Of a DNA stretch of 64,000 bases, positions 2,599-63,992 are shown one piece after another. This stretch comes from a candidate division WOR-3 bacterium (GTDB lineage: Bacteria; Hydrothermota; Hydrothermia; LBFQ01), in assembly GCA_039802605.1 (NCBI GenBank), contig JBDRWW010000003.1, forward strand, positions 64,001 through 128,000, in the 5' to 3' direction. How positions within the stretch are numbered: the stretch's first letter is position 1; each line of letters starts with the position of its first letter. Below the pieces are notes generated by a model. The model saw nothing but the letters and a program-made list of their open reading frames with translations, was not told where the DNA came from and searched no databases. A program made the translations under genes and the position numbers.

Positions 2599-3870
2599 AT
2601 GGTGATACTTCTACTATCGCAGATGGGTACGGGTGGAATACCCGGTTATATGTTTGCATACGCAATAGGTGCAAGGCCTTATGGTTTTGGTAGGGCTTTC
2701 ACGGGTTTGGCAGACGATGCGGAAGCTGTTTATTTCAACCCCGGAGCCTTGGCATTTTTGCAAAGGGTAAATGCGACGGCCGGATATTTCCAATTGCCCA
2801 TATCCGATTTTACATACTACTACGCCGCATTTACATTCCCAACGGCAACATTCGGCAGTTTTGGCATAACCGTAATGCAATTACAGAATCCCACAAGGGA
2901 TCAGGGGGCAATATTTTTTGATTCCGTTCAGTGTACGAGATTTGAAGGGTATGTATGTACGGATTCAACTTTCGCTTATGCCGATTTCCCGAAATCCGGT
3001 AACAATGATAGGACGCCCTTTAACGCGGGCCTAATAGCATATTCAAAATCCTTTTCAAGGTACATATCCGTAGGCGCTGCCCTTGAATTGGTATACCATA
3101 GGGTTTATAACTCATCGCCTTCAAGTGCGGGGATTATGGTGGGTATGATGTTTATCCCGAATCAATATTTCTCCTTAGGAATAGTGGGTCAGCACTTTAT
3201 ACCACCCAAAGAGAGTTATTTGATAACATCCCAAACATACCCTCAGGTTTGGAGGTTTGGGATAGGTTTGAGGCCCTTTAACTGGATAAACCTCGTAGTT
3301 GATGGTGCTTATTCAACCTTTTATAACGGATTCAAGTTTTACGGGGGTGCCGAGGCGAGACTCCTCTCCTTCCTTTATGTTAGAGGGGGTATAAACTACG
3401 AGGAGGTTTCCGGTGGTGGGAGTTTTGAATTCACAATAAGGGATATAATTTTCAGGCTTGACGGTGCTTATACATTTAACTATGCTTCAAACGGCGTGTA
3501 TAAGGATTATATGCAGTTTTCCGGTGTTATAAAGTTTGGCGGTTATAGGGTTTGGGCGGATGCCGATCCAAAACTCATTTCCCCTACGGAAGGGGAAGCA
3601 AACATAGCGTTTGTATATCTCCACACCTTCCCAAGGCAGGATGTTGAGAGTTGGGAGTTTATTATAAAGAAACAAACGGGTGAAGTGGTTAGAACCTTTT
3701 ACGGTGAGGGTGAGCCTCCCGTAAGGATTGAATGGGATGGTAGGGATGACGCCGGAAGAATAGTACCCCCCGGGAACTATAACTATCATTATAGGGTAAT
3801 AGATTCGGGGGGTGAAGTTTATGAACGCGCGGGTTATTTGGTTACGGTAAAAAGGGTGGAGGTATGGTAA
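2599..3870 (+). CDS. PorV/PorQ (UPF0164)-like outer-membrane barrel with C-terminal FlgD-Ig-like domain
   Basis: GARPYGFGRAFTGLADDAEAVYFNPGAL plug motif of PorV/FadL-like barrels; amphipathic strands; C-terminal EWDGRDDAGRIVPPGNYNY. Confidence 0.75.
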   Translation: MVILLLSQMGTGGIPGYMFAYAIGARPYGFGRAFTGLADDAEAVYFNPGALAFLQRVNATAGYFQLPISDFTYYYAAFTFPTATFGSFGITVMQLQNPTRDQGAIFFDSVQCTRFEGYVCTDSTFAYADFPKSGNNDRTPFNAGLIAYSKSFSRYISVGAALELVYHRVYNSSPSSAGIMVGMMFIPNQYFSLGIVGQHFIPPKESYLITSQTYPQVWRFGIGLRPFNWINLVVDGAYSTFYNGFKFYGGAEARLLSFLYVRGGINYEEVSGGGSFEFTIRDIIFRLDGAYTFNYASNGVYKDYMQFSGVIKFGGYRVWADADPKLISPTEGEANIAFVYLHTFPRQDVESWEFIIKKQTGEVVRTFYGEGEPPVRIEWDGRDDAGRIVPPGNYNYHYRVIDSGGEVYERAGYLVTVKRVEVW

Positions 3871-3871
3871 G

Positions 3872-6424
3872 ATGCTAACGGCAAGTTTAATGCTTTTTGC
3901 AATGTCCTATAATGATTTTTATAGGGCGTATAAGGACGCGGAGGAACTTTTCAGGAAGGGGGATTACTCAAAATCCGAAAAGATATACCGTAAGATCCTC
4001 AGGGATTCCTACAAGTATGGGTTTGGAAACGAAACGAGGTACAGAATAGCCGAGGCGCTGTTTAATCAAGGTAATTTTGACGGCGCTATAAAAGAATGGG
4101 ACAAACTGGCTAAGGAGAAAGATGTAAAGGGTACATACTTGGAACAGGAAATAGCCTATGCCGTTGCCTTGGCCTATGCTATCAAGGGGGATGTCAATAT
4201 TGCCAAACAAAAGTTGTTAGATTTGCAAAATTACCCATACTACAAAAACTCCGATAGGACAAAGTTCCTTGACGGGGTGATATCTTATAGGGAGGGTAAG
4301 TTCTTAGAGGCTTCCGAAAAATTGGCCAAGGCTCAAACCGTTCCAGAGGCCAAGTTTTATTATGCGAGGACATTGGCTATACTCGGAAAACCCTTGGATG
4401 CCGTGGCCATATATAAAGAACTCCTTGAAGATTATTCCGGAACCCCGCAGGAGGCTTTAATAAACTACGGAATGGTAGAGGCAAACTTCATATACGGTGA
4501 TTACAAGGCCACTTCCGAGATGGCAGACGCTTTTACAAAAAGGTTCCACGGGCATAAGCTATCCGACTATGTACAGTATTACTGGGGTATATCCCTTTAC
4601 CGTATGGGTATGGGTGAGGGTGGAAAGAAGGATAGCGTATTACTACCCAAAGCCTTGGAAAAGCTTACATTGCTAACCAAGAAGAGAAACTTTGAATTGG
4701 CGGGTTTGGCCGCGTATTTTGTGGGTAATATTCAACTTGCGCTAAAACAGTACGATGATGCCCTTAACTATTATCAAACCGCCCGTTCAAGGGCTAACGA
4801 TCAGGTGGTATCGTTTATATCAATCCTCAGAATGGCCGAGACTTATTATTACAAAGGGGATACAAATAACGCGTATTTATTGGCCAACCAGTTGGGTTCA
4901 TTCCCCTTATCCCATGAGGAGCAGGGTGTAAGCGAATATTTAACCGGCGCCATCCATTACCTTTTGAGAAAATATCCGGCTTCTATGGAGCAGTTCCAGT
5001 TCCTCATAGAAAACTATCAGAGGTCTTATTTCAGGAGGCCGGCTATGGCCATGATGATTTTCGCCCTTATAAACCAGCACGAATTTGAGGCCGCAATGGC
5101 AAGGGGTAACCTTTACAACGAAGAGGTTTCACAGGACACAACCTTTACGATATGGAACTCTTGGTTCGTTCATGCATTGGCGGAGGCGCATTATTATAAC
5201 AAGGATTATGCGACGGCAGAAAAGTTGTACAACCTAAACCTCAAATATGGGCTTTCAAAGGATTTAATAATACTTTCAAGGTTAGGCTTGGGTTGGGTTT
5301 ATATCCATCAGGACCGCTTGGACGATGCCCTGGCCCAGTTAAACGCCATAGCGGGACAATCACCCGATACATCCGTTGTTATGGCGACATTTTTGGGGAT
5401 AGGGGTGGCGGAGTTTAACAAAGGGAAATATGTAGATGCTTTTGGAAGGTTTTACGCGGTTTATCAATTTGCCCCCGAGAGGGAGGAAATAGCATCCGAG
5501 GCCCTTTATTACTCGGGTTATGCGGCAAAGGCTGCTAAGTCTTATGGTGATGCGGTTAGGAATTGGGACTTAACCATGCAGAAATATCCGAGACAACCCA
5601 AAGCCTGTGATGCCGCTTTCAGTTCCGGCGAATTGTATAAAATGGCCGGACAGTTTGACGATGCCATATCAAGGTTTAGGTGGTTTTTGGAGCATTGCCC
5701 CGACCATCCAAAGGTTCCTAGGGCTCAATTCTGGATAGCCGAGTCCTATGAGGGTAAGAAGGATTGGGAATCCGCAAGGCAGGAGTACGAAACTTTCTTA
5801 AACAAATTCCCGGAAAATGAACTCGCCCCCAAGGCTAAAACCGGCCTTGAAAGGGTTTATTTCAGGCTAACAGAACAAGACCCCAACTATCTTGAAAAGT
5901 TCTTGGAAAGGTTTCCAACAAGCAATATAGCGGCCCTTGCACTTTATAAGGCCGCGGCGGATGCAATGAACGCCGGGGATGAAGTAAAAGCCGCCGATCT
6001 CTTTTTCCGCCTTGGAAACGAGTATCCAAAGAGCGATAAGGCCGAGGAAGCATTATACTACGCTGGAACCCTCTATTTGAAGAACAAGAAGTTTAGAGAG
6101 GCTATTGAGGCTTTCAAAAAGTATAAAGACTTCTTCCCAGATGGGCAACACGCGGAGGATGTGTTCTACTATTCCTCAACCGCTCATTTGTCCTTACAGG
6201 AATACGACGCCGCTATTAAGGCTGTACAGGAATTTATAAAGAGGTTTCCAAATAGTCAAAAAGTGCCCGATGCATATCGTATAATGGGGGTGGCTTATAA
6301 TGAAATGGGGGATGTTAGGAACGCGGCGAGGGCGTTTAGGCAGGCTGCTGACCTTTATAGGCAGCAGGGTAGGGCCACAGAGGCCCAACAAATGGAAGAC
6401 ATTATTAAACAACTTCCGCAATAA
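3872..6424 (+). CDS. Large tetratricopeptide-repeat protein (BamD/CpoB-like repeats)
   Basis: Many TPR units of the F...(Y/F)P.S..A..A.(Y/F) type; SD GGAGGT upstream. Confidence 0.85.
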   Translation: MLTASLMLFAMSYNDFYRAYKDAEELFRKGDYSKSEKIYRKILRDSYKYGFGNETRYRIAEALFNQGNFDGAIKEWDKLAKEKDVKGTYLEQEIAYAVALAYAIKGDVNIAKQKLLDLQNYPYYKNSDRTKFLDGVISYREGKFLEASEKLAKAQTVPEAKFYYARTLAILGKPLDAVAIYKELLEDYSGTPQEALINYGMVEANFIYGDYKATSEMADAFTKRFHGHKLSDYVQYYWGISLYRMGMGEGGKKDSVLLPKALEKLTLLTKKRNFELAGLAAYFVGNIQLALKQYDDALNYYQTARSRANDQVVSFISILRMAETYYYKGDTNNAYLLANQLGSFPLSHEEQGVSEYLTGAIHYLLRKYPASMEQFQFLIENYQRSYFRRPAMAMMIFALINQHEFEAAMARGNLYNEEVSQDTTFTIWNSWFVHALAEAHYYNKDYATAEKLYNLNLKYGLSKDLIILSRLGLGWVYIHQDRLDDALAQLNAIAGQSPDTSVVMATFLGIGVAEFNKGKYVDAFGRFYAVYQFAPEREEIASEALYYSGYAAKAAKSYGDAVRNWDLTMQKYPRQPKACDAAFSSGELYKMAGQFDDAISRFRWFLEHCPDHPKVPRAQFWIAESYEGKKDWESARQEYETFLNKFPENELAPKAKTGLERVYFRLTEQDPNYLEKFLERFPTSNIAALALYKAAADAMNAGDEVKAADLFFRLGNEYPKSDKAEEALYYAGTLYLKNKKFREAIEAFKKYKDFFPDGQHAEDVFYYSSTAHLSLQEYDAAIKAVQEFIKRFPNSQKVPDAYRIMGVAYNEMGDVRNAARAFRQAADLYRQQGRATEAQQMEDIIKQLPQ

Positions 6425-6441
6425 AAAGGAGGTAGGGAAAT

Positions 6442-7146: not shown

Positions 7147-7147
7147 T

Positions 7148-7579: not shown

Positions 7580-7582
7580 ATT

Positions 7583-8035: not shown

Positions 8036-8081
8036 AGGAAAAATTTTTCACCTTTATAATATACAGAACAGGAGGTGGGAC

Positions 8082-9161: not shown

Positions 9162-9165
9162 GGGC

Positions 9166-10053
9166 ATGAAAAGGTATTTGATACTGTTGGCGTTTTTTGG
9201 ATTGCCCGTGCTTGGTTATGCTCAGGATCAAGGCGGTGAAATCTCCGAAGAAGAGACCGTTGTCGGTACGGCGGAATACAAGATAGATGATGCGGTGAAA
9301 CCCATTGTTGACCTCCAATTAAGGCCATTTGAACCGGTTGATAGCTTTATACTTTTAAAAGAAAAGGGTTTGGAAAAGAGGTTACCCGCGGGAATAGATA
9401 AGGAATTATCGGAAGTTGTGAAACTAAACAACCCATTCCTCAGAAGGCCGGTATATCCCGTTATGATAGTGGATAAAATAGTTATAAAACCTGGGAAATT
9501 GCCCAAGCCCGATAATTGGAAGATAGTTGTTTACAACTCGGCTGGAATACCCGTAAAAACCTTTGAAGGAAGGGGAGGGGTGCCCAACGAAATAGTATGG
9601 GACGGTATATCCGATAAGGGAGTACCCGCAATAAAACCCGGTGAGAGATTTACATATAGGATATATTTGGAGAGAAAGAGCGGGGCCAAGAGGAGGGAGG
9701 TTAGGGAAATACCCGAAATCGTAGGATTTGCCATATCCGATCCCAAAGGTGATAACATGATTTATCTAAACACCGATTATGTATTCCAACCCGGAAGGGC
9801 AAACTTGCAACCGGATGGTGAAGAGAGGATTGTGGAAATGTTAAACTTCTTAAAGGCAAAGTATAAGGGTAACGGTCCGGTGGAGGTTTATGTTTATGCC
9901 ACCAACAACTTTCTCTACGAGGATAGGGCAAAGGTTTTAAGAGAACTGATACTCAAAAACGCACCAATAGATCCGGAAAAGTTAAAGATAAATCAGGGAT
10001 ATTTTCAATCCGGAGCGAAATACGAAAGAATAGAATTGAAGTTTAGGGATTAA
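9166..10053 (+). CDS. Periplasmic protein with FlgD-Ig-like domain and degenerate OmpA-like C-terminal domain
   Basis: Signal peptide ..GYA|Q; WKIVVYNSAG.PVKTFEG...VWDGISDKG; C-terminal F.PGRANL...RAKVLRELI...GY resembles OmpA_C. Confidence 0.6.
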   Translation: MKRYLILLAFFGLPVLGYAQDQGGEISEEETVVGTAEYKIDDAVKPIVDLQLRPFEPVDSFILLKEKGLEKRLPAGIDKELSEVVKLNNPFLRRPVYPVMIVDKIVIKPGKLPKPDNWKIVVYNSAGIPVKTFEGRGGVPNEIVWDGISDKGVPAIKPGERFTYRIYLERKSGAKRREVREIPEIVGFAISDPKGDNMIYLNTDYVFQPGRANLQPDGEERIVEMLNFLKAKYKGNGPVEVYVYATNNFLYEDRAKVLRELILKNAPIDPEKLKINQGYFQSGAKYERIELKFRD

Positions 10054-10054
10054 A

Positions 10055-13131: not shown

Positions 13132-13962
13132 ATGACGATTTGGTTAATTTCGCTTTTGGATTCGGTTTATGTAAAGGTTTTTAATGTTTCAAGAAACTCT
13201 TATATAAACGACGAAATAAGCGTTGAGATTTCGGGATTTTTTAAAGACGGAAGTGAGGTTTTTGATACCCTAACCATAAAAGGCGAGGGTTGGGTAAAGG
13301 TTCCCAAAGGGCCGCATGTAATAGGACTTACAGCCCTATATCAGGGGGAAAGGTTTCCATCCCAACCGATTATCCTTACTGATACTTCAACCGTTATAAC
13401 CATTGATGTTTACGATGTTTCTGCCGACAGTTCAAATTTAACCATAAGGAGTCATAGCATAGGGATTTTTAAAGAAAGGGGTATATACCGTGTCGTTGAA
13501 TTGTTAAGCATAAAAAATGATGGTAAAAAAGCTTTTAGGGGACCCCTTATGTCCGTAGAATTACCCAAAAAAAGCGAAAGGTTTAACATAACCGGCGATG
13601 AGGAAGATTACTTTATAAAGGATAATAGGGTTGTACTTACACCCTTAATCCTCCCAGGCGAGGGGTCTTTTGGATACGATTATTTCGTGTTGGAAGATTA
13701 TTTTAAAATAATGAGAAAAGGGGCATTGGAATACAGGGTTTTTGCCGATACCGGTATAAAGGTTAAGGTTAAAGGCGGCGTGTTTGAAGGGCAAAGGGAC
13801 TTTGAAGGGCAAAAGTTTAATGTCTGGAAAAGCGTGGGAAAGGTGGAATTGGAAGTGGGATATAATCCTCTACTTAGGGAAATTGGTTATTACATTTTGG
13901 CGGCGGTGGTTATAATAGTCTCATTGGTTTTGGGTATAGTTTTTTATAGGCTTAGGAAATGA
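13132..13962 (+). CDS. Hypothetical exported beta-rich protein with C-terminal membrane anchor
   Basis: Short hydrophobic N-terminus; C-terminal TM followed by RLRK; TAA-ATG coupling. Confidence 0.65.
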   Translation: MTIWLISLLDSVYVKVFNVSRNSYINDEISVEISGFFKDGSEVFDTLTIKGEGWVKVPKGPHVIGLTALYQGERFPSQPIILTDTSTVITIDVYDVSADSSNLTIRSHSIGIFKERGIYRVVELLSIKNDGKKAFRGPLMSVELPKKSERFNITGDEEDYFIKDNRVVLTPLILPGEGSFGYDYFVLEDYFKIMRKGALEYRVFADTGIKVKVKGGVFEGQRDFEGQKFNVWKSVGKVELEVGYNPLLREIGYYILAAVVIIVSLVLGIVFYRLRK

Positions 13963-19699: not shown

Positions 19700-20304
19700 A
19701 TACCAAACTTTATGTAATACCTCGCACCGAAATAGAAATTGCTATAAGCGACGTTAACCTCCTCCAAATCCCCCGTAGAAAAATCCACCTTTTTGAACTT
19801 TAAAGAAAAAATATTTACACCCGTAAATATGTCAAAGTCTTCAAGCCTTAGGGCAAAACTAAAATTTAAAAGATAACCGAAACCCTTATACTGCTCACTT
19901 TTATCCTTTGCTATTTCTTGCCAAGCGCTTTGTGTAGTATCGTAAAGGTATAAGGAATATTTTGTGTTTAAAATCGTGTAGTTTCCACCCCCTCCCAAAC
20001 CAACCAAAGCATACATATTTTCACCTACATAAAACTTCATAAGCATATTTAAGGAAAAGGGGATGTAGTTTGCCTGGGAGGTTCTTTTCAGTTTAACCCT
20101 ATCGCTACTGTCCGAAAATGGCTTTTGAAAAAAATAAGTGTATCCCGTTTCCAAACCCGCCCCGAATAACTCGCTTATACCAAAGAAATACCTAAAACCC
20201 ATATCCGCCCCTATGCCCGTTGATGCGTAATTTGAAAACTCTTCAAATGGAATCCTTCCGTGAACCCCAAAGGATAAATCCATTGAGGATATTATCCAAA
20301 TCAT
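19696..20304 (-). CDS. Outer-membrane beta-barrel protein
   Basis: Amphipathic strands, GLETGY, IPFSL, C-terminal FYFGARYY. Confidence 0.7.
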   Translation of the reverse strand: MIWIISSMDLSFGVHGRIPFEEFSNYASTGIGADMGFRYFFGISELFGAGLETGYTYFFQKPFSDSSDRVKLKRTSQANYIPFSLNMLMKFYVGENMYALVGLGGGGNYTILNTKYSLYLYDTTQSAWQEIAKDKSEQYKGFGYLLNFSFALRLEDFDIFTGVNIFSLKFKKVDFSTGDLEEVNVAYSNFYFGARYYIKFGI

Positions 20305-20326
20305 AGCGGATATTTTAAAGTCGTTG

Positions 20327-23659: not shown

Positions 23660-23723
23660 AAGCGGTTATTTTATTGCCGTTTTGTTTTTAGTTAGTACCT
23701 TTCCACTTTAAAATATCCGCGCT

Positions 23724-27784: not shown

Positions 27785-27848
27785 AAGTGGGAATTTTACC
27801 CTCGGGAAATTTGTTTGGGTTTAAAACACCTTTAAAATTTCCAAACTC

Positions 27849-28235
27849 ATGTTATTAGCGTTTATACTATCGCAAAACCAAGATACCTTAGAGGATACAT
27901 TAAAGCGTAAGGATATCTTTATAAAATCACCCGTTAAAGCCGCTTTGAGGTCGGCGGTTATTCCGGGATGGGGGCAGTTTTACAACGGTAGAGCATTTAA
28001 AGGCCTAATACTTGGAGGGTTTTCCTTTGTATCCCTCGGTTGGACATTGAAAACTTTTAACGATTACAGGATGAAGGGGGATAATCAAAGCGTATCCAAA
28101 TTTTTGGGGGCTTTGATAGTTAATATAGCGGTTTGGGGTTATACTATTGCCGACGCGTTCGTTGATGCGTATTTATACGGATTTGAGGCCGAGAGGGATA
28201 CGGTTTTAAAGGATATAGAGGTTAAAAAGCATTAG
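27849..28235 (+). CDS. DUF5683-like membrane protein
   Basis: KSPVKAALRSAVIPGWGQFYNG and IADAFVDAYL. Confidence 0.75.
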   Translation: MLLAFILSQNQDTLEDTLKRKDIFIKSPVKAALRSAVIPGWGQFYNGRAFKGLILGGFSFVSLGWTLKTFNDYRMKGDNQSVSKFLGALIVNIAVWGYTIADAFVDAYLYGFEAERDTVLKDIEVKKH

Positions 28236-37771: not shown

Positions 37772-38941
37772 TTATTTCCATTCCGCAACGAATATGTTAA
37801 ACTCCCTGCGGTTTTTTGCACCCCTGTTTGATGTCCATACGACCTTCTTTCCGTCTTTGCTGAACATTGGGAATGCATTAAACCCCTCTGAAAATGTTAT
37901 CCTTTCAAGGTTTCTACCGTCAACATCAACTTTATAAAGCTCAAAACTAAAACTCCCGGGCTTGTGTAAGTTTGATGAGAAAATTATAAACTTTTCGGAT
38001 GGGTGGAAATATGGGGCAAAGTTTGAAACGCCCTTTGGGGAATGCGTTAGTTGGGTAAATTTTTTCGTTTTCGTATCGTATAAAAACAGTTCAACATCTT
38101 GGGGTTTTACGAGGTCCTTGGAGAGTAATTCTTTAAATTCCTTTATTTCCGAAGTATCCTTTAAGTGGCGCGCCCTAAATACGATATACCTACCCGAAGG
38201 GCTAAACATGGCTCCCCCATCGTATCCCGGAAAATCCGTAATCCTTTGTATTTCCCTTGTCCTTATGTTTATCGTGTATAACTCCAAGTCCCCATCCTTT
38301 GAGGATGTAAAAACAACAACATCCCCGTAATTCCCTTCACCCTCGGCATCGTATCCATTTGATGAGAACAGCGGATATATGCTATCCCTTTTCAAGTCGT
38401 AAATGTAAAGGTCGTAATTAAACAGCCTCCAAACATAGACCCCTTTCCTCAAATATTCATTTGCATATGGATTTGTAGGGCATTCCAAACCTTGGGAAAA
38501 TGTACTTGAAAACAGTACGGAATCCGGACTTATAAACCAACCGCATGTATTTGCACCACCCGGAGAAATCCTCTTTATCGGAAAACCGAATGTATCCATA
38601 ACAAAAATCTGATCGCACTCAAACCTCCCTTTAACAAAGGAATTGAAATACAAGCCTTTAAAATCCGCCGTGTCGTATATTTCGGGGATAAAGAACATCC
38701 AACCTTCCGAATGTTTTACTTTAAAGTATTTTAGTTTTTTGGATTTTATGAGACTTTCAAGTTTCCTCGGTTCTTTTGTTAAAAGATATACCCCACCTTC
38801 TCCCTTTGTTTGAAAAACGATCCTTTCCCCATCGGGTGAGAAATATGCTTCGGCGTTTTCCCCGACAAAGGTCAGTTGTTTTATATTCTTCAAAAACCTT
38901 TCCTCGCCTTTAAATAGCAATTGGGATACTATGAGAACCAT
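37772..38941 (-). CDS. TolB-like PD40 beta-propeller protein
   Basis: QLTFVGENAEAYFSPDG, GYDGGAMFSPSG, NFAPYFHP, FPMFSKDGKK. Confidence 0.88.
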   Translation of the reverse strand: MVLIVSQLLFKGEERFLKNIKQLTFVGENAEAYFSPDGERIVFQTKGEGGVYLLTKEPRKLESLIKSKKLKYFKVKHSEGWMFFIPEIYDTADFKGLYFNSFVKGRFECDQIFVMDTFGFPIKRISPGGANTCGWFISPDSVLFSSTFSQGLECPTNPYANEYLRKGVYVWRLFNYDLYIYDLKRDSIYPLFSSNGYDAEGEGNYGDVVVFTSSKDGDLELYTINIRTREIQRITDFPGYDGGAMFSPSGRYIVFRARHLKDTSEIKEFKELLSKDLVKPQDVELFLYDTKTKKFTQLTHSPKGVSNFAPYFHPSEKFIIFSSNLHKPGSFSFELYKVDVDGRNLERITFSEGFNAFPMFSKDGKKVVWTSNRGAKNRREFNIFVAEWK

Positions 38942-38984
38942 AGGCGTTTATTCTACCCTTGTTAATCGTCCTTAAAATTATCAC

Positions 38985-42724: not shown

Positions 42725-44200
42725 TCACCATATCACAAAATTCCCCTTTGGATAGGTAATAACTATCTTCCTTTTAACCGTAAAACTTTCCCCGGGTTTT
42801 AAATTTACCTTCCACATTAGAAGGCCATCACCCAAGTCCTTTTCCGGTTCGGGTTCAACGCCAAAATCAACAACATTGACATTTCCCAAAGAGAAGGGTT
42901 TTCTAACGAACAGGGTTATTTCTACACTTTCCTTTCTATTATTGGTTATGGTGATTTGGTGTATCCGCTCCTCACGGGTTAAAACCGTCTTGTTTTTACC
43001 CCAAATATCCGTCCTCTTCTGTTCCAAAAGTTTTACATCTCCGGTTATAAACGGGTCAAAACCCAAGAATAGGGTATCCTCTTCATCCCTTTGCGTTCCT
43101 TTGTAAAAGTAATCTGCCGAAAGTTCCCCGTTAAAGAAAACTTTTATATTACCTCCTGGCAAATCCATATCGGGTTTAAAAACAACGCTAATATAAGCCC
43201 TCTCGGACAATTCGGGATATATAAAAGCCAACTCCTTAACCTTATATGTTTTCTCAAACAATTCCGCAATTGCCGGCTTTAACCTGTCAAAAGTTATCTC
43301 TTTGTCTATAACAAACCTCGTTGAAATTGGTGTAAATGTTATTTCTGGGGTTTCGGGAATTCCTTTTACCGCTTCCGCTGCCATGCGCTCCGCCGATAAT
43401 GTAGTCCTTTTCTCATAAACCATAGGCGGCCTGTCGGTTATGTACCAGGGGGTATGTGATGGTGCGAAGAAAGAAGGGGGAATGTTGGTTATTATAACCC
43501 TTTTTGCCGATACTTTTCTAGGCAATTCTGATATAAACCTTGCCAAAGCGGAAATTCTCATATTTCCCCCACTTTTATACTCAACCGTATATTCCGGTTC
43601 CCAACCAAGGTTTCCCGAAGGATAAAATATAACTAATTCAACCGTTGGATCGTTCGCCTTTTCAATGTAAAGGGTTATAATTCCCTGTTCGGTTAGTAAT
43701 CTCTGCTTTAAACCGTTTAAACTGTCAAGTTTTGCGTCTAAATCCTTTAAAACTTTTAAGAGGGAATCCCTTCTTATATGATAATCCGGAAGTCGTCCTG
43801 AAAGGTGTAAATATTCATTTATGTTGTCCCCCTTTCCGTTCTTTATCCCGTCCAAAAAGGCGTTTAAAAGGTTTATGTAATACTCCACCTCCGAAAGCTT
43901 TGCCTTTACATACGATGAAGTTTTCTCCAAGGTACTAATCTTTTTTTCTAAATCTTTATAGGTTTCCGAATCATAGGGTAATTTTTGCGTTTCAAATCCC
44001 ATATTTGCCAAGATACCGTTATGAATACCTATCTTTACATTTTCGCCCACGGGTGTTGGGAGTTTTGATACTTTTACATCCAAAGACCCTTCTGCCTTTA
44101 ATTTTATTTTAGCAAACAATAACGCCCCATTTGGAGAAATAACTGCGGAATCCACGGTTTGCGGGAAATCCAAAGAAATTGCACTTATGAGTATAAACAT
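42725..44200 (-). CDS. DUF4140/DUF4139 (MuiA-like) protein
   Basis: N-terminal beta segment, coiled coil, GWEPEY, LFLGFDP, ITITN, LMWKVNLKPGE...YP; start moved to ATG 44200. Confidence 0.78.
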   Translation of the reverse strand: MFILISAISLDFPQTVDSAVISPNGALLFAKIKLKAEGSLDVKVSKLPTPVGENVKIGIHNGILANMGFETQKLPYDSETYKDLEKKISTLEKTSSYVKAKLSEVEYYINLLNAFLDGIKNGKGDNINEYLHLSGRLPDYHIRRDSLLKVLKDLDAKLDSLNGLKQRLLTEQGIITLYIEKANDPTVELVIFYPSGNLGWEPEYTVEYKSGGNMRISALARFISELPRKVSAKRVIITNIPPSFFAPSHTPWYITDRPPMVYEKRTTLSAERMAAEAVKGIPETPEITFTPISTRFVIDKEITFDRLKPAIAELFEKTYKVKELAFIYPELSERAYISVVFKPDMDLPGGNIKVFFNGELSADYFYKGTQRDEEDTLFLGFDPFITGDVKLLEQKRTDIWGKNKTVLTREERIHQITITNNRKESVEITLFVRKPFSLGNVNVVDFGVEPEPEKDLGDGLLMWKVNLKPGESFTVKRKIVITYPKGNFVIW

Positions 44201-44259
44201 AGTGGGAATTTTAAATGCGGGTAATTTTAAATGAAACGACTTTATAATACCCACCTAAC

Positions 44260-45319: not shown

Positions 45320-46771
45320 ATGAAAATCCTATGGATAGATGACGAGATCGAGGAATTGAACTCCGTTATATCCTTTTTGAAGTCGCAGGGCTTGGATGTT
45401 GATACCGCAAAGAGCGCCGTTGAGGGGGTTGAAAAACTTTCAAAAAACACCTATAACCTCGTTTTGTTAGATTATAGGATGCCGGGTGTTAACGGTTTGG
45501 ATACTTTAAGGATTATAAGGAGGACTTACCCTAACCTCCCAGTAGTTATGCTAACAATGATAACCGACGAAGAAATAATAAGAAAATCCCTCATTGAAGA
45601 GGCATACGATTATATCGTAAAGCCCGTTCAACCCGCCCAACTCTTGGCATTGGTTTCGAGGTTGAATAGGGAAAGATTCAAAAGGGAAATGTTTGGAGAA
45701 GAGGCGGAAAGGCTCAGAGAAGAGGTTAGGAATATACCGGAAACATTTGAGGGGTGGCTTTTGAAAGCGGTTAAAATATTCCAAGCAAGGGTAAATTATA
45801 GGGCTTACAGGTCAAAGTTTGACGAGATACTAAACGAAGAGAACCGGAAGTTTTGCCTTTGGGTTGAGGAGAATTATAAAGACATAATTAATGATGATAC
45901 CCTCTTGATGTCGCATACCCTTTTAAGGAAAATGATTTTGCCATATGTTGAGGTTTCGCCCGTTGTTTTAATAGTTTTGGACAATTTCAGGTTTGACCAG
46001 ATGTACGAAATAGTTTCCGAAATATCGTCATCCCACAAGATTGAACAGTATGTTTATATGTCAATATTACCCACCGCCACCCAGTATTCAAGGAATGCCC
46101 TGTTTTCCGGAAAATTACCCCTTGAAATGGAAAAACTTATGGAAGGTGTATTGGCCGATAACCAAAACGAATTAAAACTCCTTTGGAATCTCTTAAACGA
46201 GGAAAAATACAGGGTAAAGACTTGGTATTCAAAGATAAAGGATTTGGAAACCCTATCGTCTTTAAAACCTTATGGCAGGAGGTTTGAGGTTTATGTTGTG
46301 AATTTCGTGGATACGATTTTACACCTAACCGCAAATGTGGAACCTTTAAAGGCCTTAGGGGAAGGGGAATCCTCAATAAAGAGGTGGGCAAAGCTTGTTT
46401 TGGAGGACGGGAGGTTTGTTAGGGTTATAAACGCTTTCCTTGAAAGGGGTTATAGGGTCTTTATAACTTCGGATCACGGTTGGATAATAGGTAGAGAACC
46501 TTTAAGGGTTTTTGGGGAAAACATAACAAAGGGTTTTAGGTATAAGTATGGGGATGGTTTGGAAGTAAAAGGTGATAAAATTGTTAGGGTTAAAAAGCCA
46601 AAGGAATGGGGGCTTCCGGAATGGGGCGAATTCGTCTTTGCAAAGGAGGATGCTTATTTCGTATGGGGGGAAAGGATGGAAGAATATGCGGAAATCTATA
46701 AAAACAAAATGTTTCACGGTGGAATATCCCTTGAAGAAATGGTTTTAAACCTTATACACATTCAACCTTAG
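45320..46771 (+). CDS. porX: PorX-like response regulator (REC plus PglZ domain)
   Basis: KILWIDDEIE, LLDYRMPG, KPV; LDNFRFDQ, SILPTATQYSRNALFSG, TSDHG, HGGISLEEM. Confidence 0.85.
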   Translation: MKILWIDDEIEELNSVISFLKSQGLDVDTAKSAVEGVEKLSKNTYNLVLLDYRMPGVNGLDTLRIIRRTYPNLPVVMLTMITDEEIIRKSLIEEAYDYIVKPVQPAQLLALVSRLNRERFKREMFGEEAERLREEVRNIPETFEGWLLKAVKIFQARVNYRAYRSKFDEILNEENRKFCLWVEENYKDIINDDTLLMSHTLLRKMILPYVEVSPVVLIVLDNFRFDQMYEIVSEISSSHKIEQYVYMSILPTATQYSRNALFSGKLPLEMEKLMEGVLADNQNELKLLWNLLNEEKYRVKTWYSKIKDLETLSSLKPYGRRFEVYVVNFVDTILHLTANVEPLKALGEGESSIKRWAKLVLEDGRFVRVINAFLERGYRVFITSDHGWIIGREPLRVFGENITKGFRYKYGDGLEVKGDKIVRVKKPKEWGLPEWGEFVFAKEDAYFVWGERMEEYAEIYKNKMFHGGISLEEMVLNLIHIQP

Positions 46772-46783: not shown

Positions 46784-48487
46784 ATGAAAAGGTTGGGTTT
46801 TCTAATTTTAGCCGGTATTCTACCTTTATACGCCGATACCCTTGCAATAATTCACATAAACGATACCCATCACCACCTATATCCTTATAAGGCTTGGAAC
46901 GGTGTTTCCTCGGCCGCATATGTCATTAAGCGGTTAAAATCCTTGTATCCCAACCACCTGTTCTTTCACGCCGGCGATATATTCGTAGGGGATTTCTCCT
47001 TTCCGTACGGTTTGGGTAGGGTTGAACTTCGGATATTAAAAAACATTTTAAGACCCGATGCCATAACCCTTGGAAATCACGAATTTGATATAACACCGGA
47101 TTCCTTATACGCGGTTTTAACGGATGTTGGTATGCCCATGCCCATACTATCCGCAAACCTAACCCCCGATACATTGCCGATATCATCAATAGTCCAACCT
47201 TATGCGACATTTATAAGGTCCGGTAAAAAGATATGCGTTTTGGGTCTTACCACAAACCAGTTTAACATATTATCACCCGCGCAACAACCCGTACAGTTTG
47301 AGAACCCAGTAACGGTGGCGCAGAATTACGAGGATACACTAACCGCCCTCGGTTGTGATTACAGGATAATACTATCCCATAGTGGCGTGAATGTTGATAG
47401 CGCTATTGCTCGTCAGACGAGATATTATAACCTCATAATCTCCGGGCACACGCATACCTGCTACGATTCACCGGCAAAAATCGTTAATCTAAGCGGTGAT
47501 ACAACATACTTTGCGGAGGCATGTTCCCATTACCAGGCTGTTGGTTTTTGGTTAATAGACTTGAACACACTGAGACCGATAAGTTATACCTTAATAAGGT
47601 TAAACAATACAACGCCCATAGATGGCGAAACATGGGATACGCTTATGGCCTATAAACCCTTGATAGAAAGCGGGTTTGGAAATGTTTTTGATGACTTTTG
47701 GGGTTATGCCCCAGCTGAGATTCCTAATATTCCCGATATTCCGGGATATTTGGATACCCCGGCCGGAAACCTTGTTGCGGATGCAATGAGGGTTAAAAGC
47801 GGGGCGGACGCGGCCGCTTGGCCCACATTCTTAATAGCAGAGGAACTCCAAGCCGGAAGAATAACGTCTAACAATGTTTTAATGTTGGTTCCCTATGGCT
47901 TGGATGAAACATATATTACCGGCAATAATACCCGTTTGCTTGTTGCCACATTTACGGGCAAGCAGATATATAACTTGCTTTCAACAACGCAAGCGTTCTT
48001 TGGGGAACAACCAATAGCGCAGGTTTCGGGTATGCGTTATAGGTATGATCCCACATCCTCCCCCGTAATGCTCCCCTCGGATATAGAAATAGGCGGTTTC
48101 CCCTTGGATACAAACGCAAACTATACCTTGGCCGTTGATAAAAACATAATATATGTTGCCGGGCTTTTGGGAATAACCCCTCTAAGGGTTGATACCACTC
48201 CATATACGGTTTTTGAAGCCGTAAGGGAATACATAAGGGATTTGTGGATAGTTGAATATCACTCGGAGGGCAGGATTACATATAAAAACCTAAGCGCTTA
48301 TGAAATTCCGACAAAAACCCAAAGGCTAAATGTTTTAAACCGGTTTGTATATTCCCAAACCCCAATGGATATATACGATATAACGGGTAGGCTAATCGCC
48401 AAAGGGGTTTATAGGTTTTTGGCGCCCAAATCGGGCGTTTATTTTATAAGGTTGGCGGATAAAAGCGTAAAGGTTATTATCAGATAA
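46784..48487 (+). CDS. 5'-nucleotidase/metallophosphatase with T9SS type A C-terminal domain
   Basis: Signal ..LYA|D; HINDTH, AGD, LGNHEFD, LSH, GHTH, GNLVADAM; C-terminal IYDITGRLI...SGVYFIR.....KVII. Confidence 0.88.
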   Translation: MKRLGFLILAGILPLYADTLAIIHINDTHHHLYPYKAWNGVSSAAYVIKRLKSLYPNHLFFHAGDIFVGDFSFPYGLGRVELRILKNILRPDAITLGNHEFDITPDSLYAVLTDVGMPMPILSANLTPDTLPISSIVQPYATFIRSGKKICVLGLTTNQFNILSPAQQPVQFENPVTVAQNYEDTLTALGCDYRIILSHSGVNVDSAIARQTRYYNLIISGHTHTCYDSPAKIVNLSGDTTYFAEACSHYQAVGFWLIDLNTLRPISYTLIRLNNTTPIDGETWDTLMAYKPLIESGFGNVFDDFWGYAPAEIPNIPDIPGYLDTPAGNLVADAMRVKSGADAAAWPTFLIAEELQAGRITSNNVLMLVPYGLDETYITGNNTRLLVATFTGKQIYNLLSTTQAFFGEQPIAQVSGMRYRYDPTSSPVMLPSDIEIGGFPLDTNANYTLAVDKNIIYVAGLLGITPLRVDTTPYTVFEAVREYIRDLWIVEYHSEGRITYKNLSAYEIPTKTQRLNVLNRFVYSQTPMDIYDITGRLIAKGVYRFLAPKSGVYFIRLADKSVKVIIR

Positions 48488-50930: not shown

Positions 50931-51764
50931 ATGATAACGGTTTTACTCGCCGGCTCTAATACACCCCCTTGGCTTGGGGGTCCCAACATCCTTTATGCGG
51001 GTATATATGGGTATGGTTTTGCGGCGTATGAGAGCAGGACAGTGGAATCTTATAGCACAAAGGGGGATTATATAACCAGGGGTTTGGGCGGCCAGAGCGC
51101 AAATCTCGGCGGGGGCGCATTTATAAGGTGGAATCAATTGGGAATCTACTTGGATTTCGTGGAGGGATACTTCTACTCCTGGAACTATCAAAACGAGGAG
51201 ATAAAGGACACGAGCTTTTATCAGAGAATAGGGGTTGATATAACATGGCATATAAACAACGAATCTTGGACGGGAATAGGTGGGGGAATTAGGAATGTTA
51301 GGTACGCCCTCGGTTATGGCTTTCCTTTCCCGGATACCTCTAGCAATGAGGTTAAAGAGGGTAAAAACCTCCCAATACCCAATTCAAATGTTAAGTTTAT
51401 GGCCATAGGCTTGCAGGGAAAGTATTATTTGGAAGCCGAAAAACTTTATTACGAAAGGAAGGGGCTATTGCCTTGGATAGGCGGTTATGTCGGATATGCA
51501 CAGGCTTCTTTTGAAGCCGGAGAACCCTTTAATACATCTTCGGATGCGAGCAGCTTTTATGTTGAGGTTATGCTCGGATTGGACTTTTATGTGCAACCCT
51601 GGTTATCTTTCTGGATATCCGGAAAATACACAACATTTGAAACCTTCTTTCCGCTGCCGCCTTCCCATAAATACAAGGATTATTACGACAATGTAAGGAC
51701 CTCGTTGGGAACCACATTAATACAAGGGGGTATAAGGCTAACCTTTGCGAGGGAAAGGTATTGA
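50931..51764 (+). CDS. Outer-membrane beta-barrel protein
   Basis: Gly/aromatic amphipathic strands, PWIGGYVGY, C-terminal GGIRLTF; SD AGGAGGT; start TTG 50925 or ATG 50931. Confidence 0.68.
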   Translation: MITVLLAGSNTPPWLGGPNILYAGIYGYGFAAYESRTVESYSTKGDYITRGLGGQSANLGGGAFIRWNQLGIYLDFVEGYFYSWNYQNEEIKDTSFYQRIGVDITWHINNESWTGIGGGIRNVRYALGYGFPFPDTSSNEVKEGKNLPIPNSNVKFMAIGLQGKYYLEAEKLYYERKGLLPWIGGYVGYAQASFEAGEPFNTSSDASSFYVEVMLGLDFYVQPWLSFWISGKYTTFETFFPLPPSHKYKDYYDNVRTSLGTTLIQGGIRLTFARERY

Positions 51765-52306
51765 TAGGTATTTGGTTATCCTATATTGATACGGTTGGGG
51801 TTGGGGATGTTTTATCCATTAGCGTTTATGGTAGGGAGGAGTATGCCGATGTAAAGGTTATCGTTCCACCTTCTTGTAATGCCTATTTTCCATTGGTGGG
51901 GAGGCTAAAAGTTTGTGGTTTAACCTTGGATAAATTGTCCGATACTTTACAAAAACTCTTAAAACCCTATTACGACCTTCCGGTTATAGTATTTTTTCAA
52001 GAAATCGCACCCCCTACGGTGGTAGTCCTCGGGGAAGTTGTTAATCCGGGATCCGTTAGGTATATTAAGGGTATGAGATTGGCGGATGCCCTGTCCCAGG
52101 CCGGAATAAAACCAACATCGGATGTTTCTAATATAAAAATAAACGGTAAAAGTGTGGATTTAACCAGGGAAAACCCAATGTTATATCCCGGCGATAGGGT
52201 GGAAGTTCCATCAAAATGGTGGAAAGGTTTTATGGATGGCTTCGGTTTGCTGTTAAACACCGCTACTTTCGGCATACTTTTCTACACCACTTTTATAAAA
52301 AAATGA
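51761..52306 (+). CDS. Minimal Wza-like polysaccharide export protein (Poly_export plus SLBB)
   Basis: GVGDVLSISVYG, PLVGRLKVCGLT, VLGEVVNPG, LYPGDRVEVP, C-terminal helix. Confidence 0.82.
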   Translation: MIGIWLSYIDTVGVGDVLSISVYGREEYADVKVIVPPSCNAYFPLVGRLKVCGLTLDKLSDTLQKLLKPYYDLPVIVFFQEIAPPTVVVLGEVVNPGSVRYIKGMRLADALSQAGIKPTSDVSNIKINGKSVDLTRENPMLYPGDRVEVPSKWWKGFMDGFGLLLNTATFGILFYTTFIKK

Positions 52307-59853: not shown

Positions 59854-59935
59854 AAGTGCGAAATTCTAAGGCCGTTAAATTTTTGGTAAATTATAAACCT
59901 CCCAACCTTATAATACTTGGAAAAGGAGGTGAATT

Positions 59936-60196: not shown

Positions 60197-60212
60197 GGGT
60201 ATTACGATCTGG

Positions 60213-60244
60213 GGGTGGGGATTATTATTTCCCCACCCTTTTTT
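60213..60244 (+). terminator. Intrinsic terminator after ferredoxin
   Basis: GGGTGGGGA-TTATTATT-TCCCCACCC hairpin followed by TTTTTT. Confidence 0.85.
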
Positions 60245-60267
60245 ATTTCGGTTTTATAATACCCGCA

Positions 60268-60777
60268 ATGGGAATATTCGTTATACTCCTTATAAGCCAA
60301 GGAAAAGGGGAAACTATAAAGAACGCCTATGGCCTTTTTGGAAGTGGGTACTACGGGTATCCTATGGGGAGTTATGCGGCGGGTGGTGGGGGAATGGTAG
60401 CCATAGGAAACTGGTTTGAACCCTTAGCCTTCTTGGTCACCGCGCATGGTATATATTCCCCGGACAGTTCCATAGGGGCGGCCATTGATTTTTCCATAAG
60501 GGGGGCTATACTGGGACAGAGGAAGTTCAGGCAAACAAACGGGAATTTTGCATATTTATCCTTTGGCTTGGGTGTTTTCGCCTTACCGGGCACTTTTGTT
60601 GAAGGGCTTAACTTCTCCAAGGTAAAACCCGATATAATTTTGGGTTTGGGGTTTGAGTGGGCTTTAAGCCCGGAAATATCCATATTGGGTCAGGTTAGAT
60701 ATGATGTTTTGAGTGTAATAACTTACAAGGAAAATGTTGCAACGGGCCAGTTGGGATTTTTGATATATGGTAGATAA
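60268..60777 (+). CDS. Small outer-membrane beta-barrel protein
   Basis: AYLSFGLG, LGLGFEW, QVRY, C-terminal QLGFLIY. Confidence 0.65.
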   Translation: MGIFVILLISQGKGETIKNAYGLFGSGYYGYPMGSYAAGGGGMVAIGNWFEPLAFLVTAHGIYSPDSSIGAAIDFSIRGAILGQRKFRQTNGNFAYLSFGLGVFALPGTFVEGLNFSKVKPDIILGLGFEWALSPEISILGQVRYDVLSVITYKENVATGQLGFLIYGR

Positions 60778-62137: not shown

Positions 62138-63066
62138 GGAAGTTCTTGGACTTTATATTTTTGGCAAGGCCGACGCTGATTTTGCCGGGTTGGGGGTTTT
62201 TTCTGTTGGGATACCTTCATTCTTTAAACCTAATGGAGGACTTAAAACCGGCCATTTTTATACCTTTAAATTCAAAGTTTTGGATGGGTTTTTTATCCGC
62301 AACATTAATAAGCGCTTACATATATGTTATAAACCAGATGTTTGATGTGGAAAGCGACAGAAAGAATTCCAAGTTGTTTATACTCCCAAAGGGCTATATA
62401 TCCATACCGGAGGCAAAGATATATTCCGTAATCCTACTTTTGGGTTCCCTTATTTCCGGTTTTCCCGTGGGAATAAATTATTTAATCCTTTTACTTTTCG
62501 GCTTTTTGATAGGCACATTGTACTCTCTACCCCCTTTTAGGTTTAAGGGTAGGCCCTTTTTGGATATGTTTTCAAACGCCGTTGGGTATTCCCTTCTCAA
62601 TCTTGGGGCTGGAATAGTTGCCGGAGGTGGGGATTTTATGCAAATCTTGAAAACTTTCCCACCCTATTTTTTTGCCGTTTGTGCCTTATACCTAAACACA
62701 ACAATACCGGATATTCCTGGTGATAAATCGGAAAATTTAATAACCACAGGGGTATTCTTGGGGGAGTTTAAAACTTCCGTATTGGCATCGTTTATGGTTT
62801 TAATAACTCTAATGCTTTCCCGGGATAACACCTTTATGTTCTGGGTTTCGTTGGTCTCCTTACCGTTTTATGTATTATCCGCGTTAAAAAAGGGAGAGGA
62901 GTTCTACGCAAAGGTTTCGTATAGGATTTCCGGATTGGCATTCACACTGCTGCTAATAATAAAGTATCCCCTTTTCCTCATTCCATCCATAATAACGCTC
63001 TTATCCCTAAGGCTTTATTACGGTTTGAGGTTTGGGATAAAGTACCCGTCCCTCCTTGGGAGATGA
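62134..63066 (+). CDS. UbiA family prenyltransferase
   Basis: LARP, NQMFDVESDRKN, YSLPPFRFK, PDIPGD. Confidence 0.85.
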   Translation: MRKFLDFIFLARPTLILPGWGFFLLGYLHSLNLMEDLKPAIFIPLNSKFWMGFLSATLISAYIYVINQMFDVESDRKNSKLFILPKGYISIPEAKIYSVILLLGSLISGFPVGINYLILLLFGFLIGTLYSLPPFRFKGRPFLDMFSNAVGYSLLNLGAGIVAGGGDFMQILKTFPPYFFAVCALYLNTTIPDIPGDKSENLITTGVFLGEFKTSVLASFMVLITLMLSRDNTFMFWVSLVSLPFYVLSALKKGEEFYAKVSYRISGLAFTLLLIIKYPLFLIPSIITLLSLRLYYGLRFGIKYPSLLGR

Positions 63067-63992
63067 ATATTGCTTTATCCTTTATATTCTCCCAATACGA
63101 GATTTCCGTTATTGATACCCTAACGAATATGCTTTATAACGAAAGGTTTGATGAATTTGAGAATTCTTTAAAAAGGTTTTATGGTGAGGTGGATACAAAC
63201 ATCTTACGATGTATAAAGTTGGGTTTTTTGGAGTTGTATATGACGGACAACTCTACGGATTACAGATATGGGGAATTCGTAGCCCTAATGGATACATTGG
63301 TGAATCTCCCGCAAAATAACACCCGAAACAAACTTTATGTGGCCGTATCCTCCGCAATAGGTGCGGTTTTTTACGGTAGGAGGGGAGATATAACCAAAGC
63401 CATATCACTTGGGAATATATCGTTTAGTCTTTTCAGCGAGATATACTCCGAAAATCCGGATGTTTATGATTCGTATTTGCCTCTGGGCATTTACCATTTT
63501 GCAATGGGATATCTCAGTAGGTCTTCTTCAAGGAAGAAAAGGGGAATTGAAATGGTAAAAGAGTCCGCAAAAAGGGGGGTATTGGTAAAACCCCTAGCCT
63601 ATGCGGCCCTAGTTTATATTTATGTTTTTGATAAAAAGCCCGGTTATGCCGTGGATTACGGGATTAAGGCCCTGGAATTGTATCCCAAAAGCAGAACTTT
63701 CAGGTGGATATTGGCATATGCTTATAAAGAGGCCGGTATGTATAAGGATGCCATAAGGGTATATATGGAAATTTTAATGGATTTAAATAGGAGAAACCCA
63801 AACTGTAATGTGTGCTTGGCGGAGGTATATTTCCATTTGGGGGAGAGTTATAAGGCTTTGGGAGATGATGAAAAGGCGAAAAAGAGTTTTTGGTCGTCAT
63901 ACTACTATGCAAGTTCCGAGGAAGATCCTTACAGACGGAGAAAGGTAAAGGAGATTTTAAGAAAACTCGCCAAGTATGGGATCGGAGGCTAA
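63063..63992 (+). CDS. Tetratricopeptide-repeat protein
   Basis: YDSYLPLGIYHF, ALELYP, AEVYFHLGESY; short hydrophobic N-terminus. Confidence 0.75.
   Translation: MNIALSFIFSQYEISVIDTLTNMLYNERFDEFENSLKRFYGEVDTNILRCIKLGFLELYMTDNSTDYRYGEFVALMDTLVNLPQNNTRNKLYVAVSSAIGAVFYGRRGDITKAISLGNISFSLFSEIYSENPDVYDSYLPLGIYHFAMGYLSRSSSRKKRGIEMVKESAKRGVLVKPLAYAALVYIYVFDKKPGYAVDYGIKALELYPKSRTFRWILAYAYKEAGMYKDAIRVYMEILMDLNRRNPNCNVCLAEVYFHLGESYKALGDDEKAKKSFWSSYYYASSEEDPYRRRKVKEILRKLAKYGIGG

Follow-up and report, generated by a model that had tools for sequence, protein, structure and literature searches.

Candidate minimal export signals of a few uncharged residues in a WOR-3 bacterium from a class that appears to lack the signal recognition particle

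Many envelope proteins encoded in a 64,000-nucleotide stretch of a candidate division WOR-3 genome (assembly GCA_039802605.1, contig JBDRWW010000003.1, positions 64,001 to 128,000, or G000:C3:64001-128000 in our numbering; hereafter the window) begin with Met and a handful of uncharged, hydrophobic residues in place of a classical signal peptide. We refer to these N-termini as stubs. Our analysis indicates that stubs are probably genuine minimal Sec-type signals, that is, signal peptidase I (SPase I) signals shortened from the N-terminal side to Met, five to nine hydrophobic residues and a cleavage site. The original prediction, made from the window alone, was that the lineage may use a class of miniature signal peptides. 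This is supported: stubs sit on proteins that cross the inner membrane, they are conserved among orthologues in character and not in sequence, and in the chaperone SurA they are positionally homologous to classical signals. We also found that the whole class to which the genome belongs appears to lack the signal recognition particle (SRP) pathway, which the original prediction had not anticipated.

Stub N-termini across the proteome and among orthologues

The genome assembly comprises 1.65 Mb in 23 contigs and is 90% complete. Genes were called with a crude open reading frame (ORF) caller of our own, which gave 1620 genes covering 95.8% of the genome. We defined a stub as Met plus 5-13 uncharged residues with a mean Kyte-Doolittle value of at least 1.8, followed by a non-hydrophobic stretch (mean below 1.0 over the next 15 residues). 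This rule matched 161 of the 1620 N-termini, and a rule for classical signals matched 145. Hydrophobic runs at N-termini form a distinct length class. Their counts for lengths 1 to 10 are 194, 79, 43, 27, 28, 36, 38, 26, 14 and 11, a bimodal distribution with a second mode at 6-7, whereas runs that start at internal Met residues fall monotonically. Scaled from the internal runs on lengths 1-3, about 54 proteins would be expected at lengths 5-10; we observed 153, an excess of about 100. The composition of the matches is also distinctive. Among the 161 N-terminal matches, 37 (23%, enriched but not a majority) have Gln as their first polar residue, compared with 15 of 342 internal ones, in a proteome with 1.8% Gln, and Trp occupies position 3 in 30 of 161 stubs versus 29 of 1459 other ORFs. 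Mean Kyte-Doolittle values of stubs lie at about 2-3.9. Lys and Arg are absent before and within the hydrophobic run, by definition in all 161 stubs and also in the 12 window examples described below. A rough tally of SPase I-type signals in the genome gives about 100 stubs (the excess) against about 28 classical non-lipoprotein signals counted by hand; stubs would roughly be the majority form among its SPase I substrates.

Stubs are concentrated on exported proteins. Pfam searches assigned a family to 48 of 81 stub proteins in one set and to 48 of 80 in a second. Of these 96, 65 are envelope or secreted proteins, 17 cytoplasmic false positives, 8 polytopic membrane proteins and 6 ambiguous. 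Our control was a random 150 ORFs with neither a stub nor a classical signal. Among the 115 of these with a family, only 6 were of exported type, and 4 of those 6 have stub-like starts that the rule missed. Exported types are thus strongly enriched among stubs (65/96 versus 6/115; Fisher p = 3e-23). The carriers include BamA, a second Omp85 protein, SurA, SprA, two TolC-like OEPs, OmpA proteins and TonB-dependent receptors, together with LolA-like and DsbA-like proteins, cytochrome c, PCuAC, cell-wall amidases, and M23, S8 and C25 proteases. We chose cargo of the type IX secretion system (T9SS; PF18962) as an unbiased sample of proteins bound to use Sec. Its 19 matches fall in 18 called genes, 9 of them with stubs by rule, about 5 more with stub-like starts by eye, and 2-3 with classical signals. 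In many stub proteins the Pfam domain starts at residues 8-15, directly after the stub, and therefore leaves no room for a hidden signal.

The same architecture recurs in relatives, which are kin rather than independent samples and are mostly represented by metagenome assemblies. All 19 intact bamA loci, from the same genus, family and order and from one further family, start with 7-10 hydrophobic residues, followed by Gln in 17, and a TAGAAT or TAAAAT box or a Shine-Dalgarno (SD) sequence lies directly upstream. In the TolB-like protein, 6-8 residues precede Gln or Glu at all 10 loci of families f1 and f2. In SurA of family f1, all 12 loci start with Met plus 5-7 hydrophobic residues and continue Q-LDT(L/V)D(R/K)..., with a stop one codon upstream, inside an SD-stop overlap. 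Here, the stub varies freely and the residues after Gln are nearly invariant. The three f5 SurA loci are also of stub type (MTWMLALLS-Q or similar). Frameshifts hiding longer signals were a concern of the original prediction, and orthologues bear none out: the short form is found in independently assembled genomes for BamA (19/19), SurA of f1 and f5 (15/15) and the TolB-like protein (10/10).

SurA links stubs to classical signals. The SurA proteins of f4 and f6-f10, families that belong to the same class, start with 16-23-residue signals of MKK or MR type. These signals end ...A/S/G|Q, and, measured from the conserved D(K/R)VVA motif, their Gln is in the homologous place. Family f3 is intermediate: two of its three loci have 11-residue signals with one Lys before Gln, and the third has no Gln. 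In alignment, the stub-Gln junction of f1 and f5 falls on the ...A|Q junction of the classical signals in f4 and f6-f10, and we therefore read the stub as the remnant of a classical signal peptide. On this alignment, a stub would be a classical signal minus its n-region and about half of its core, with the cleavage site retained.

At class level, BamA signals have 8-16 residues with at most one Lys (12 of 20 fragments with a usable N-terminus; distant BamA N-termini were read by frame walking from search coordinates). Phylum-wide, several other families have BamA signals of 11-16 residues without an n-region (e.g., ...FPYG|E), and yet others have classical ones. We sampled 400 kb from each of two further genomes. 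One, from another class, had 17 stub-rule and 78 classical-rule matches in 320 genes, and the other, G032 of the same class (family f4), had 10 and 43 in 348 genes. Because these two samples are mostly classical, the 6-8-residue form as the majority signal would be a trait of the family and order of our genome.

All 12 ultra-short N-termini on which the original prediction was built translate as it gave them (Table 1), and the in-frame TAA codons lie where it placed them, two codons ahead of the bamA ATG and three ahead of that at 2599. Six of the 12 (20304-, 23659-, 27849+, 38941-, 44200- and 60268+) have a TAnAAT box 7-10 nt upstream of the start codon, in agreement with the -10 boxes described there, and some other stub starts in the window are preceded by GGAGG. 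Classical signals (9166, 46784 and 2145; MKR..., about 17-24 residues) and lipoboxes do coexist with stubs in the window. Pfam confirmed the DUF5683, DUF4139, PD40 (TolB-like) and Omp85/POTRA identities; the label 'PorV-like' for the protein at 2599 was not confirmed, as Pfam gave FlgD_ig alone. The start codons needed some correction. The codon at 51761 is TTG and not ATG. Eighteen codons upstream of the start at 44200 there is an in-frame GTG, which immediately follows a TAG and adjoins a tRNA-Ala gene, and the ORF at 50931 has a TTG two codons upstream. In these three cases, we read the promoter or SD spacing as favoring the start first proposed. Seven of the 12 examples pass the strict stub rule; the other five fall outside it because of their hydrophobicity, a polar second residue or an upstream start chosen by the gene caller.

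Table 1. Stubs, associated elements and contrasting classical signals in the window (positions are those of the window).
Feature	Position	Strand	Remarks
Stub MVILLLS then Q, 423-aa protein	2599..2622	+	only FlgD_ig by Pfam; in-frame TAA 3 codons upstream
Stub-like MLTASLMLFA, 850-aa TPR-type protein	3872..3901	+	GGAGG upstream; fails strict hydrophobicity rule
Classical signal MKRYLILLAFFGLPVLGYA then Q, contrast case	9166..9222	+	
Stub MTIWLISLL then D	13132..13158	+	upstream gene's TAA adjoins ATG; no Pfam family
Stub MIWIISS, 202-aa protein	20284..20304	-	TAAAAT at 20312-20317; no Pfam family
bamA stub MLLGILVL then Q, 9 codons	23633..23659	-	Omp85 and POTRA by Pfam
TAAAAT, -10-like box, 8 nt 5' of bamA ATG	23668..23673	-	includes the in-frame TAA; TAGAAT/TAAAAT at the same place in family relatives
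Stub MLLAFILS then Q, DUF5683 protein	27849..27875	+	TAAAAT at 27833-27838
Stub-like start MSWMTIYS then Q, 827-aa protein	35182..35208	+	absent from the original list; no Pfam family at E<=1e-10
Shortest stub MVLIVS then Q, PD40/TolB-like protein	38921..38941	-	TAGAAT at 38950-38955
Stub MFILISA, DUF4139 protein	44180..44200	-	TAAAAT at 44208-44213; alternative upstream in-frame GTG at 44254
Classical signal MKRLGFLILAGILPLYA then D, contrast case	46784..46834	+	
Stub MITVLLA	50931..50951	+	AAGGAGG upstream; alternative TTG two codons upstream
Stub (L/M)IGIWLSY, TTG-initiated, 181-aa protein	51761..51784	+	least certain start: overlaps upstream gene's end
Stub MGIFVILLIS then Q	60268..60300	+	TATAAT at 60255-60260; no Pfam family
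Stub-like MNIALSFIFS then Q	63063..63095	+	polar N at position 2, outside stub rule

Two further loci deserve mention. The genome carries a reverse gyrase gene (contig G000:C8, ORF at locus L090:91-3534, minus strand; Topoisom_bac, Toprim, zf_Rg and DEAD domains by Pfam), a marker of life at very high temperature, and the N-terminus of this protein (GTG start, MSIFII...) is one of the cytoplasmic false positives of the stub rule. In a same-genus relative, the first 40 nucleotides of a contig (G001:C4:1-40, L012) are a run of restriction sites resembling what we take to be a cloning-vector polylinker, fused to mid-bamA at the contig start; this is probably vector contamination.

Start sites, cleavage and competing readings

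The original prediction held that stubs are not truncated gene calls, and in-frame stops close upstream, with a -10 box or SD sequence adjoining the start, confirm this. An in-frame stop lies within 10 codons upstream in 119 of the 161 stub ORFs. The nearest upstream in-frame stops are TAA in 90 cases, TGA in 42 and TAG in 29, and the 1620 genes themselves end in TAA (791), TGA (578) and TAG (251). Since each of the three codons is in use as a terminator and is also found ahead of stubs, no reassignment of a single codon would restore a longer signal, and we rejected an altered genetic code or read-through as an explanation.

The start sites themselves are unusual. In 435 of the 1620 genes, TAnAAT precedes the start codon by 6-9 nt, compared with about 5 genes per other spacing, a peak that implies, as far as promoter motifs can tell, that a large share of the genome is transcribed leaderless or near-leaderless. 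Cytoplasmic genes take part: in the window, clpB (59853-) and glyA (15058+) are fronted by TAnAAT, as are further genes at 45320+ and 53282+. The peak is smaller in G032 (22 of 348 genes at 6 nt), and there is none in G084, a genome of another class. Leaderless mRNA was considered as the cause of stubs and rejected: SurA stubs of f1 are led by SD sequences, and TAnAAT in the 5-10 nt window is just modestly more common in stub genes (63/161) than in genes with neither signal type (362/1314), with classical-signal genes at 50/145. Mapping of three raw-read metatranscriptome runs returned no reads from two, and from the third 39 reads, nearly all 90-95% alike, around two tRNA genes; a further run consisted of short contigs only.

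The original prediction offered two fates for stubs, cleavage before Gln or no cleavage. Small residues at -1 favor the former, as a prediction. The residue at -1 is Ser, Ala, Gly, Thr or Cys in 23 of the 37 stubs followed by Gln (Q-stubs), versus 22 of 138 residues elsewhere in the runs; at -3 it is mostly Leu, Ile or Val. Classical signals ending ...A|Q number 17 in the same genome. An excess of Gln reminiscent of the Q-rule of Bacteroidetes thus follows both stub and classical signals in this WOR-3 genome (in the window, at 9166+, 2599+, 27849+ and 38941-). A glutaminyl cyclase, which was to be inspected for lineage-specific changes, was not recognized in the 90% complete genome: PF05096 gave 0 matches, and a strong PF04389 (M28) match at C7:8048-9703 has aminopeptidases as its best PDB relatives, and a PDZ-like tail. 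The paper on the Q-rule notes that Gln cyclization can be spontaneous (PMC5837995). We would expect it to be fast at about 80 °C.

Several points weigh against stubs being minimal, cleaved signals. Some concern the counts. The stub rule alone is unspecific because it also matches 342 of 7520 internal Met positions (4.5%); both the rule and the ORF calling are crude, and the sorting of Pfam families into exported and cytoplasmic is our own judgment. The Pfam E-value cut-offs behind the enrichment were unequal, at 1e-5 and 1e-6 for the two stub sets and 1e-10 for the control. Of the 96 stub proteins with a family, 17 are cytoplasmic, several with an obviously too-early start or a Rossmann-type first strand, and TTG and GTG starts in order- and class-level relatives are a reading from SD or -10 spacing. 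Others concern the signals themselves. Export and cleavage of stubs are both predictions, and cleavage is deduced from the letters of the sequence. Fourteen of the 37 Q-stubs have a bulky Phe, Leu, Val or Ile at -1. SPase I does not tolerate Pro at +1, and 24 of 161 stubs have Pro as their first polar residue. Six to eight residues are also too short for a helical span of the bilayer, so that the standard geometry of cleavage by the signal peptidase LepB is not obviously applicable.

Stubs could be artefacts of wrong starts, assembly frameshifts, an altered code or chance hydrophobic starts. The crude gene caller and the internal matches would fit this, and clear wrong starts do occur among the rule's matches: in ribosomal protein L13, Ldh and AlaDh, the Pfam match begins only at residues 15-32. 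However, all three kinds of in-frame stop lie immediately upstream of stubs, a promoter or SD sequence adjoins the start, run lengths are bimodal, exported families are enriched, and independently assembled genomes share the architecture. We regard this explanation as largely refuted and give it very little credence.

Stubs could instead be uncleaved tags that open SecYEG (or YidC) and are too short for the membrane to retain them, with the protein released into the periplasm carrying its Met-stub or trimmed by an enzyme other than LepB. Stubs of 6-10 residues, shorter than a membrane span, would suit such a role, as would the bulky -1 residues and the Pro cases, and lipoproteins, which need anchorage for modification, keep full n-regions (57/61; see below). 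Set against this, Gln is enriched only at N-termini and not after internal runs, which makes sense if Gln becomes the new N-terminus. The preference for small residues at -1, the homology of the SurA stub-Gln junction with the classical A|Q site, and the free variation of the stub among the 12 f1 SurA orthologues next to almost invariant residues after Gln likewise speak for cleavage. We consider uncleaved tags unlikely, and prefer the reading of stubs as cleaved, SPase I-type signals.

Apparent absence of the SRP and the probable route of export

Searches of 41 genomes of the class, including genomes rated 99-100% complete, recovered no component of the SRP pathway. None of the 41 had the Ffh M domain (PF02978), the SRP54/FtsY GTPase domain (PF00448) gave only P-loop cross-matches of at most 28.6 bits in the 41, and SRP RNA was found in 0 of 41 with RF00169 and 0 of 5 with RF01854. 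A tblastn search of our genome with four Ffh proteins from the same phylum gave a best E of 0.095. The positive controls succeeded in 14/14, 14/14 and 12/14 reference genomes. Elsewhere in a sample of the phylum, the Ffh M domain scored above 107 bits in 67 of 121 genomes, and Ffh-positive genomes typically had two PF00448 matches above 200 bits and, in the 5 of 5 tested, RF00169. The loss of Ffh extends to several families outside the class.

Families f18, f22 and f26 (e.g., G084:C3:273922-274488) have no Ffh M domain and a single SRP-type GTPase match, of 138-162 bits, in ORFs of 354-466 aa; this lone GTPase may be FlhF or a remnant.

A cultured WOR-3 strain is reported to have inner and outer membranes (PMC12285271). 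The class would be a free-living diderm clade without an SRP, and the absence of SRP, FtsY and SRP RNA from it is a surprise in its own right. The abstract of a 2021 mBio paper calls SRP 'conserved in all living organisms'. We found no report of natural SRP loss in free-living bacteria in the literature searched, and a term search of the main texts of three WOR-3 papers (PMC12542636, PMC12285271 and PMC4791363) returned no mention of signal peptides, SRP, Ffh or FtsY.

SRP loss is nevertheless not a strict cause of stubs, and we rejected it as such. The BamA signal is classical in all 16 Ffh-negative genomes outside the class and has no n-region in 12 of 24 Ffh-positive ones, and G032, which belongs to the same class and has no SRP, carries mostly classical signals. 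The absence of SRP from the class does imply that SecA/SecYEG, rather than SRP, would have to read the stubs.

The genome encodes SecA, SecY, YidC, peptide deformylase and one LepB. The original prediction suggested divergent SecA, SecY or signal peptidase as a possible cause, and this was not supported: SecA and SecY match their Pfam families strongly, and LepB is better conserved at class level (54-60% identity) than BamA (36-43%) or SurA (32-45%). A second, specialized signal peptidase was sought and not found. The genome has one PF10502 match (G000:C1:226010-226681), and 38 of 41 relatives had a LepB match, always exactly one.

Of 15 LepB loci tried (L260-L289), 8 gave sequences that were aligned. 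Those of f1 and f2, the families with the shortest signals, share two deletions, of about 4-5 and 6-8 residues, relative to five sequences from f3, f4, f8 and f10.

Stubs also differ from other signal types of the genome. Of 61 lipobox candidates, 57 keep Lys or Arg in the n-region, with Cys mostly at positions 13-22, and only 3 have neither Lys nor Arg and a Cys within the first 13 residues. Stubs are not of signal peptidase II type, as they lack the lipobox Cys at +1, nor of twin-arginine translocation (Tat) type, as they have no Arg by definition, although the genome has a TatC gene. Class III (prepilin) signals were rejected on architecture, a stub being a 5-13-residue run followed by a polar stretch.

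We propose the following mechanism. Met would be retained at the start of the stub because bulky second residues block Met aminopeptidase, and its deformylated amino group would be the sole positive charge. With no SRP in the class, SecA/SecYEG would capture the hydrophobic N-terminus. The single LepB would cut after a small residue, and the new N-terminal Gln would cyclize to pyroglutamate; at about 80 °C this may need no enzyme. Since 6-8 residues cannot span the bilayer, the stub probably stays in the lateral gate or the inner leaflet, and Trp-3 could serve as an interfacial anchor; both points are speculative. Trp at position 3 is frequent among the few residues that stubs retain and recurs in relatives, in SurA of f5 and in BamA of G039 and G012. 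Because lipoproteins keep an MKR n-region, we read the lipid-modification route as needing a membrane-anchored signal and the SPase I route of this lineage as not needing one.

Trp-3 might instead be read by another receptor. A lineage-specific substitute for SRP that recognizes M-hydrophobic-W, or a YidC-type insertase, could provide a different or additional route, and both the recurrence of Trp at position 3 (30 of 161 stubs, and relatives) and the undetected Ffh, FtsY and SRP RNA would fit it. Against it, the BamA signals of Ffh-positive and Ffh-negative genomes and the mostly classical signals of G032 (43 versus 10 in 348 genes) uncouple short signals from SRP loss, no candidate factor was identified, and in all systems studied so far T9SS cargo and beta-barrel proteins travel through Sec. 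We judge such a route to be quite improbable.

With stubs as SPase I-type signals, a fuller proposition can be framed. A hot-spring WOR-3 order, within a class in which Ffh, FtsY and SRP RNA were undetected in 41 genomes, may export the greater part of its SPase I secretome, BamA and SurA among it, through uncharged signals of 6-9 residues that are too short for the bilayer; if these are functional and cleaved, SecYEG and LepB would work in a geometry outside the n-h-c model of signal peptides. For instance, the lateral gate might keep hold of the N-terminus, anchored by nothing but Trp-3 and the free amino group. We advance this proposition tentatively, and as a whole we lean slightly against it.

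Relation to known export signals

If stubs work as proposed, the natural lower bound of a Sec signal, and the minimal information for export, would be about seven uncharged residues. Stubs challenge the textbook picture of how an export signal is built and touch on an old question, namely which features SecA/SecY and signal peptidase recognize. We found no description of such signals in the literature searched on WOR-3 signal peptides and on short or minimal signal peptides (supplements excluded). Prediction tools whose training sets consist of classical signals would probably overlook most of the lineage's secretome, and metabolic and envelope reconstructions of WOR-3 may therefore undercount exported proteins. 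The family tree amounts to a natural experiment, with orthologues whose signals of 7, 11 and 18 residues end at the same cleavage site, and the cultured WOR-3 strain (PMC12285271) makes bench testing possible.

The closest known relatives of stubs are canonical Sec/SPase I signal peptides, which are described as tripartite (n-h-c) in a review (PMC9360617). Like these, stubs are N-terminal, have a hydrophobic core, often have a small residue at -1 where Gln follows, next to mostly aliphatic ones at -3, and are found on periplasmic, outer-membrane and secreted proteins; they are homologous in position to the classical signals of orthologues, in a genome with SecA, SecY and LepB. Unlike these, stubs have no charged n-region and no distinct polar c-region, measure 6-10 residues (mode 7) in place of about 18-30, and frequently have Trp at position 3. 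The length of their h-region is at or below the commonly quoted lower limit for Sec signals.

The Q-rule offers a second parallel, and its authors describe it as specific to Bacteroidetes (PMC5837995). As in the Q-rule, Gln follows signals far above its share of the composition, both after stubs (37/161) and after classical signals (17). In our genome, however, Gln follows a minority of stubs, and no glutaminyl cyclase was recognized.

Dispensable n-region charge has a precedent in engineered signals. In the early 1990s, the laboratories of Mizushima and Kendall reportedly rescued Escherichia coli signals without N-terminal charge by making the core longer or more hydrophobic. Charge would thus be dispensable where the core is very hydrophobic, and stubs are very hydrophobic. 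The engineered cores were lengthened, whereas in stubs the core is shortened too, and this has happened naturally and proteome-wide. Finally, stubs resemble class III (prepilin and archaellin) signals in having a very short N-terminal segment before the processing site. In prepilins, a charged leader is removed ahead of a retained hydrophobic helix of about 20 residues, whereas the stub is itself hydrophobic and is followed by a polar mature domain.

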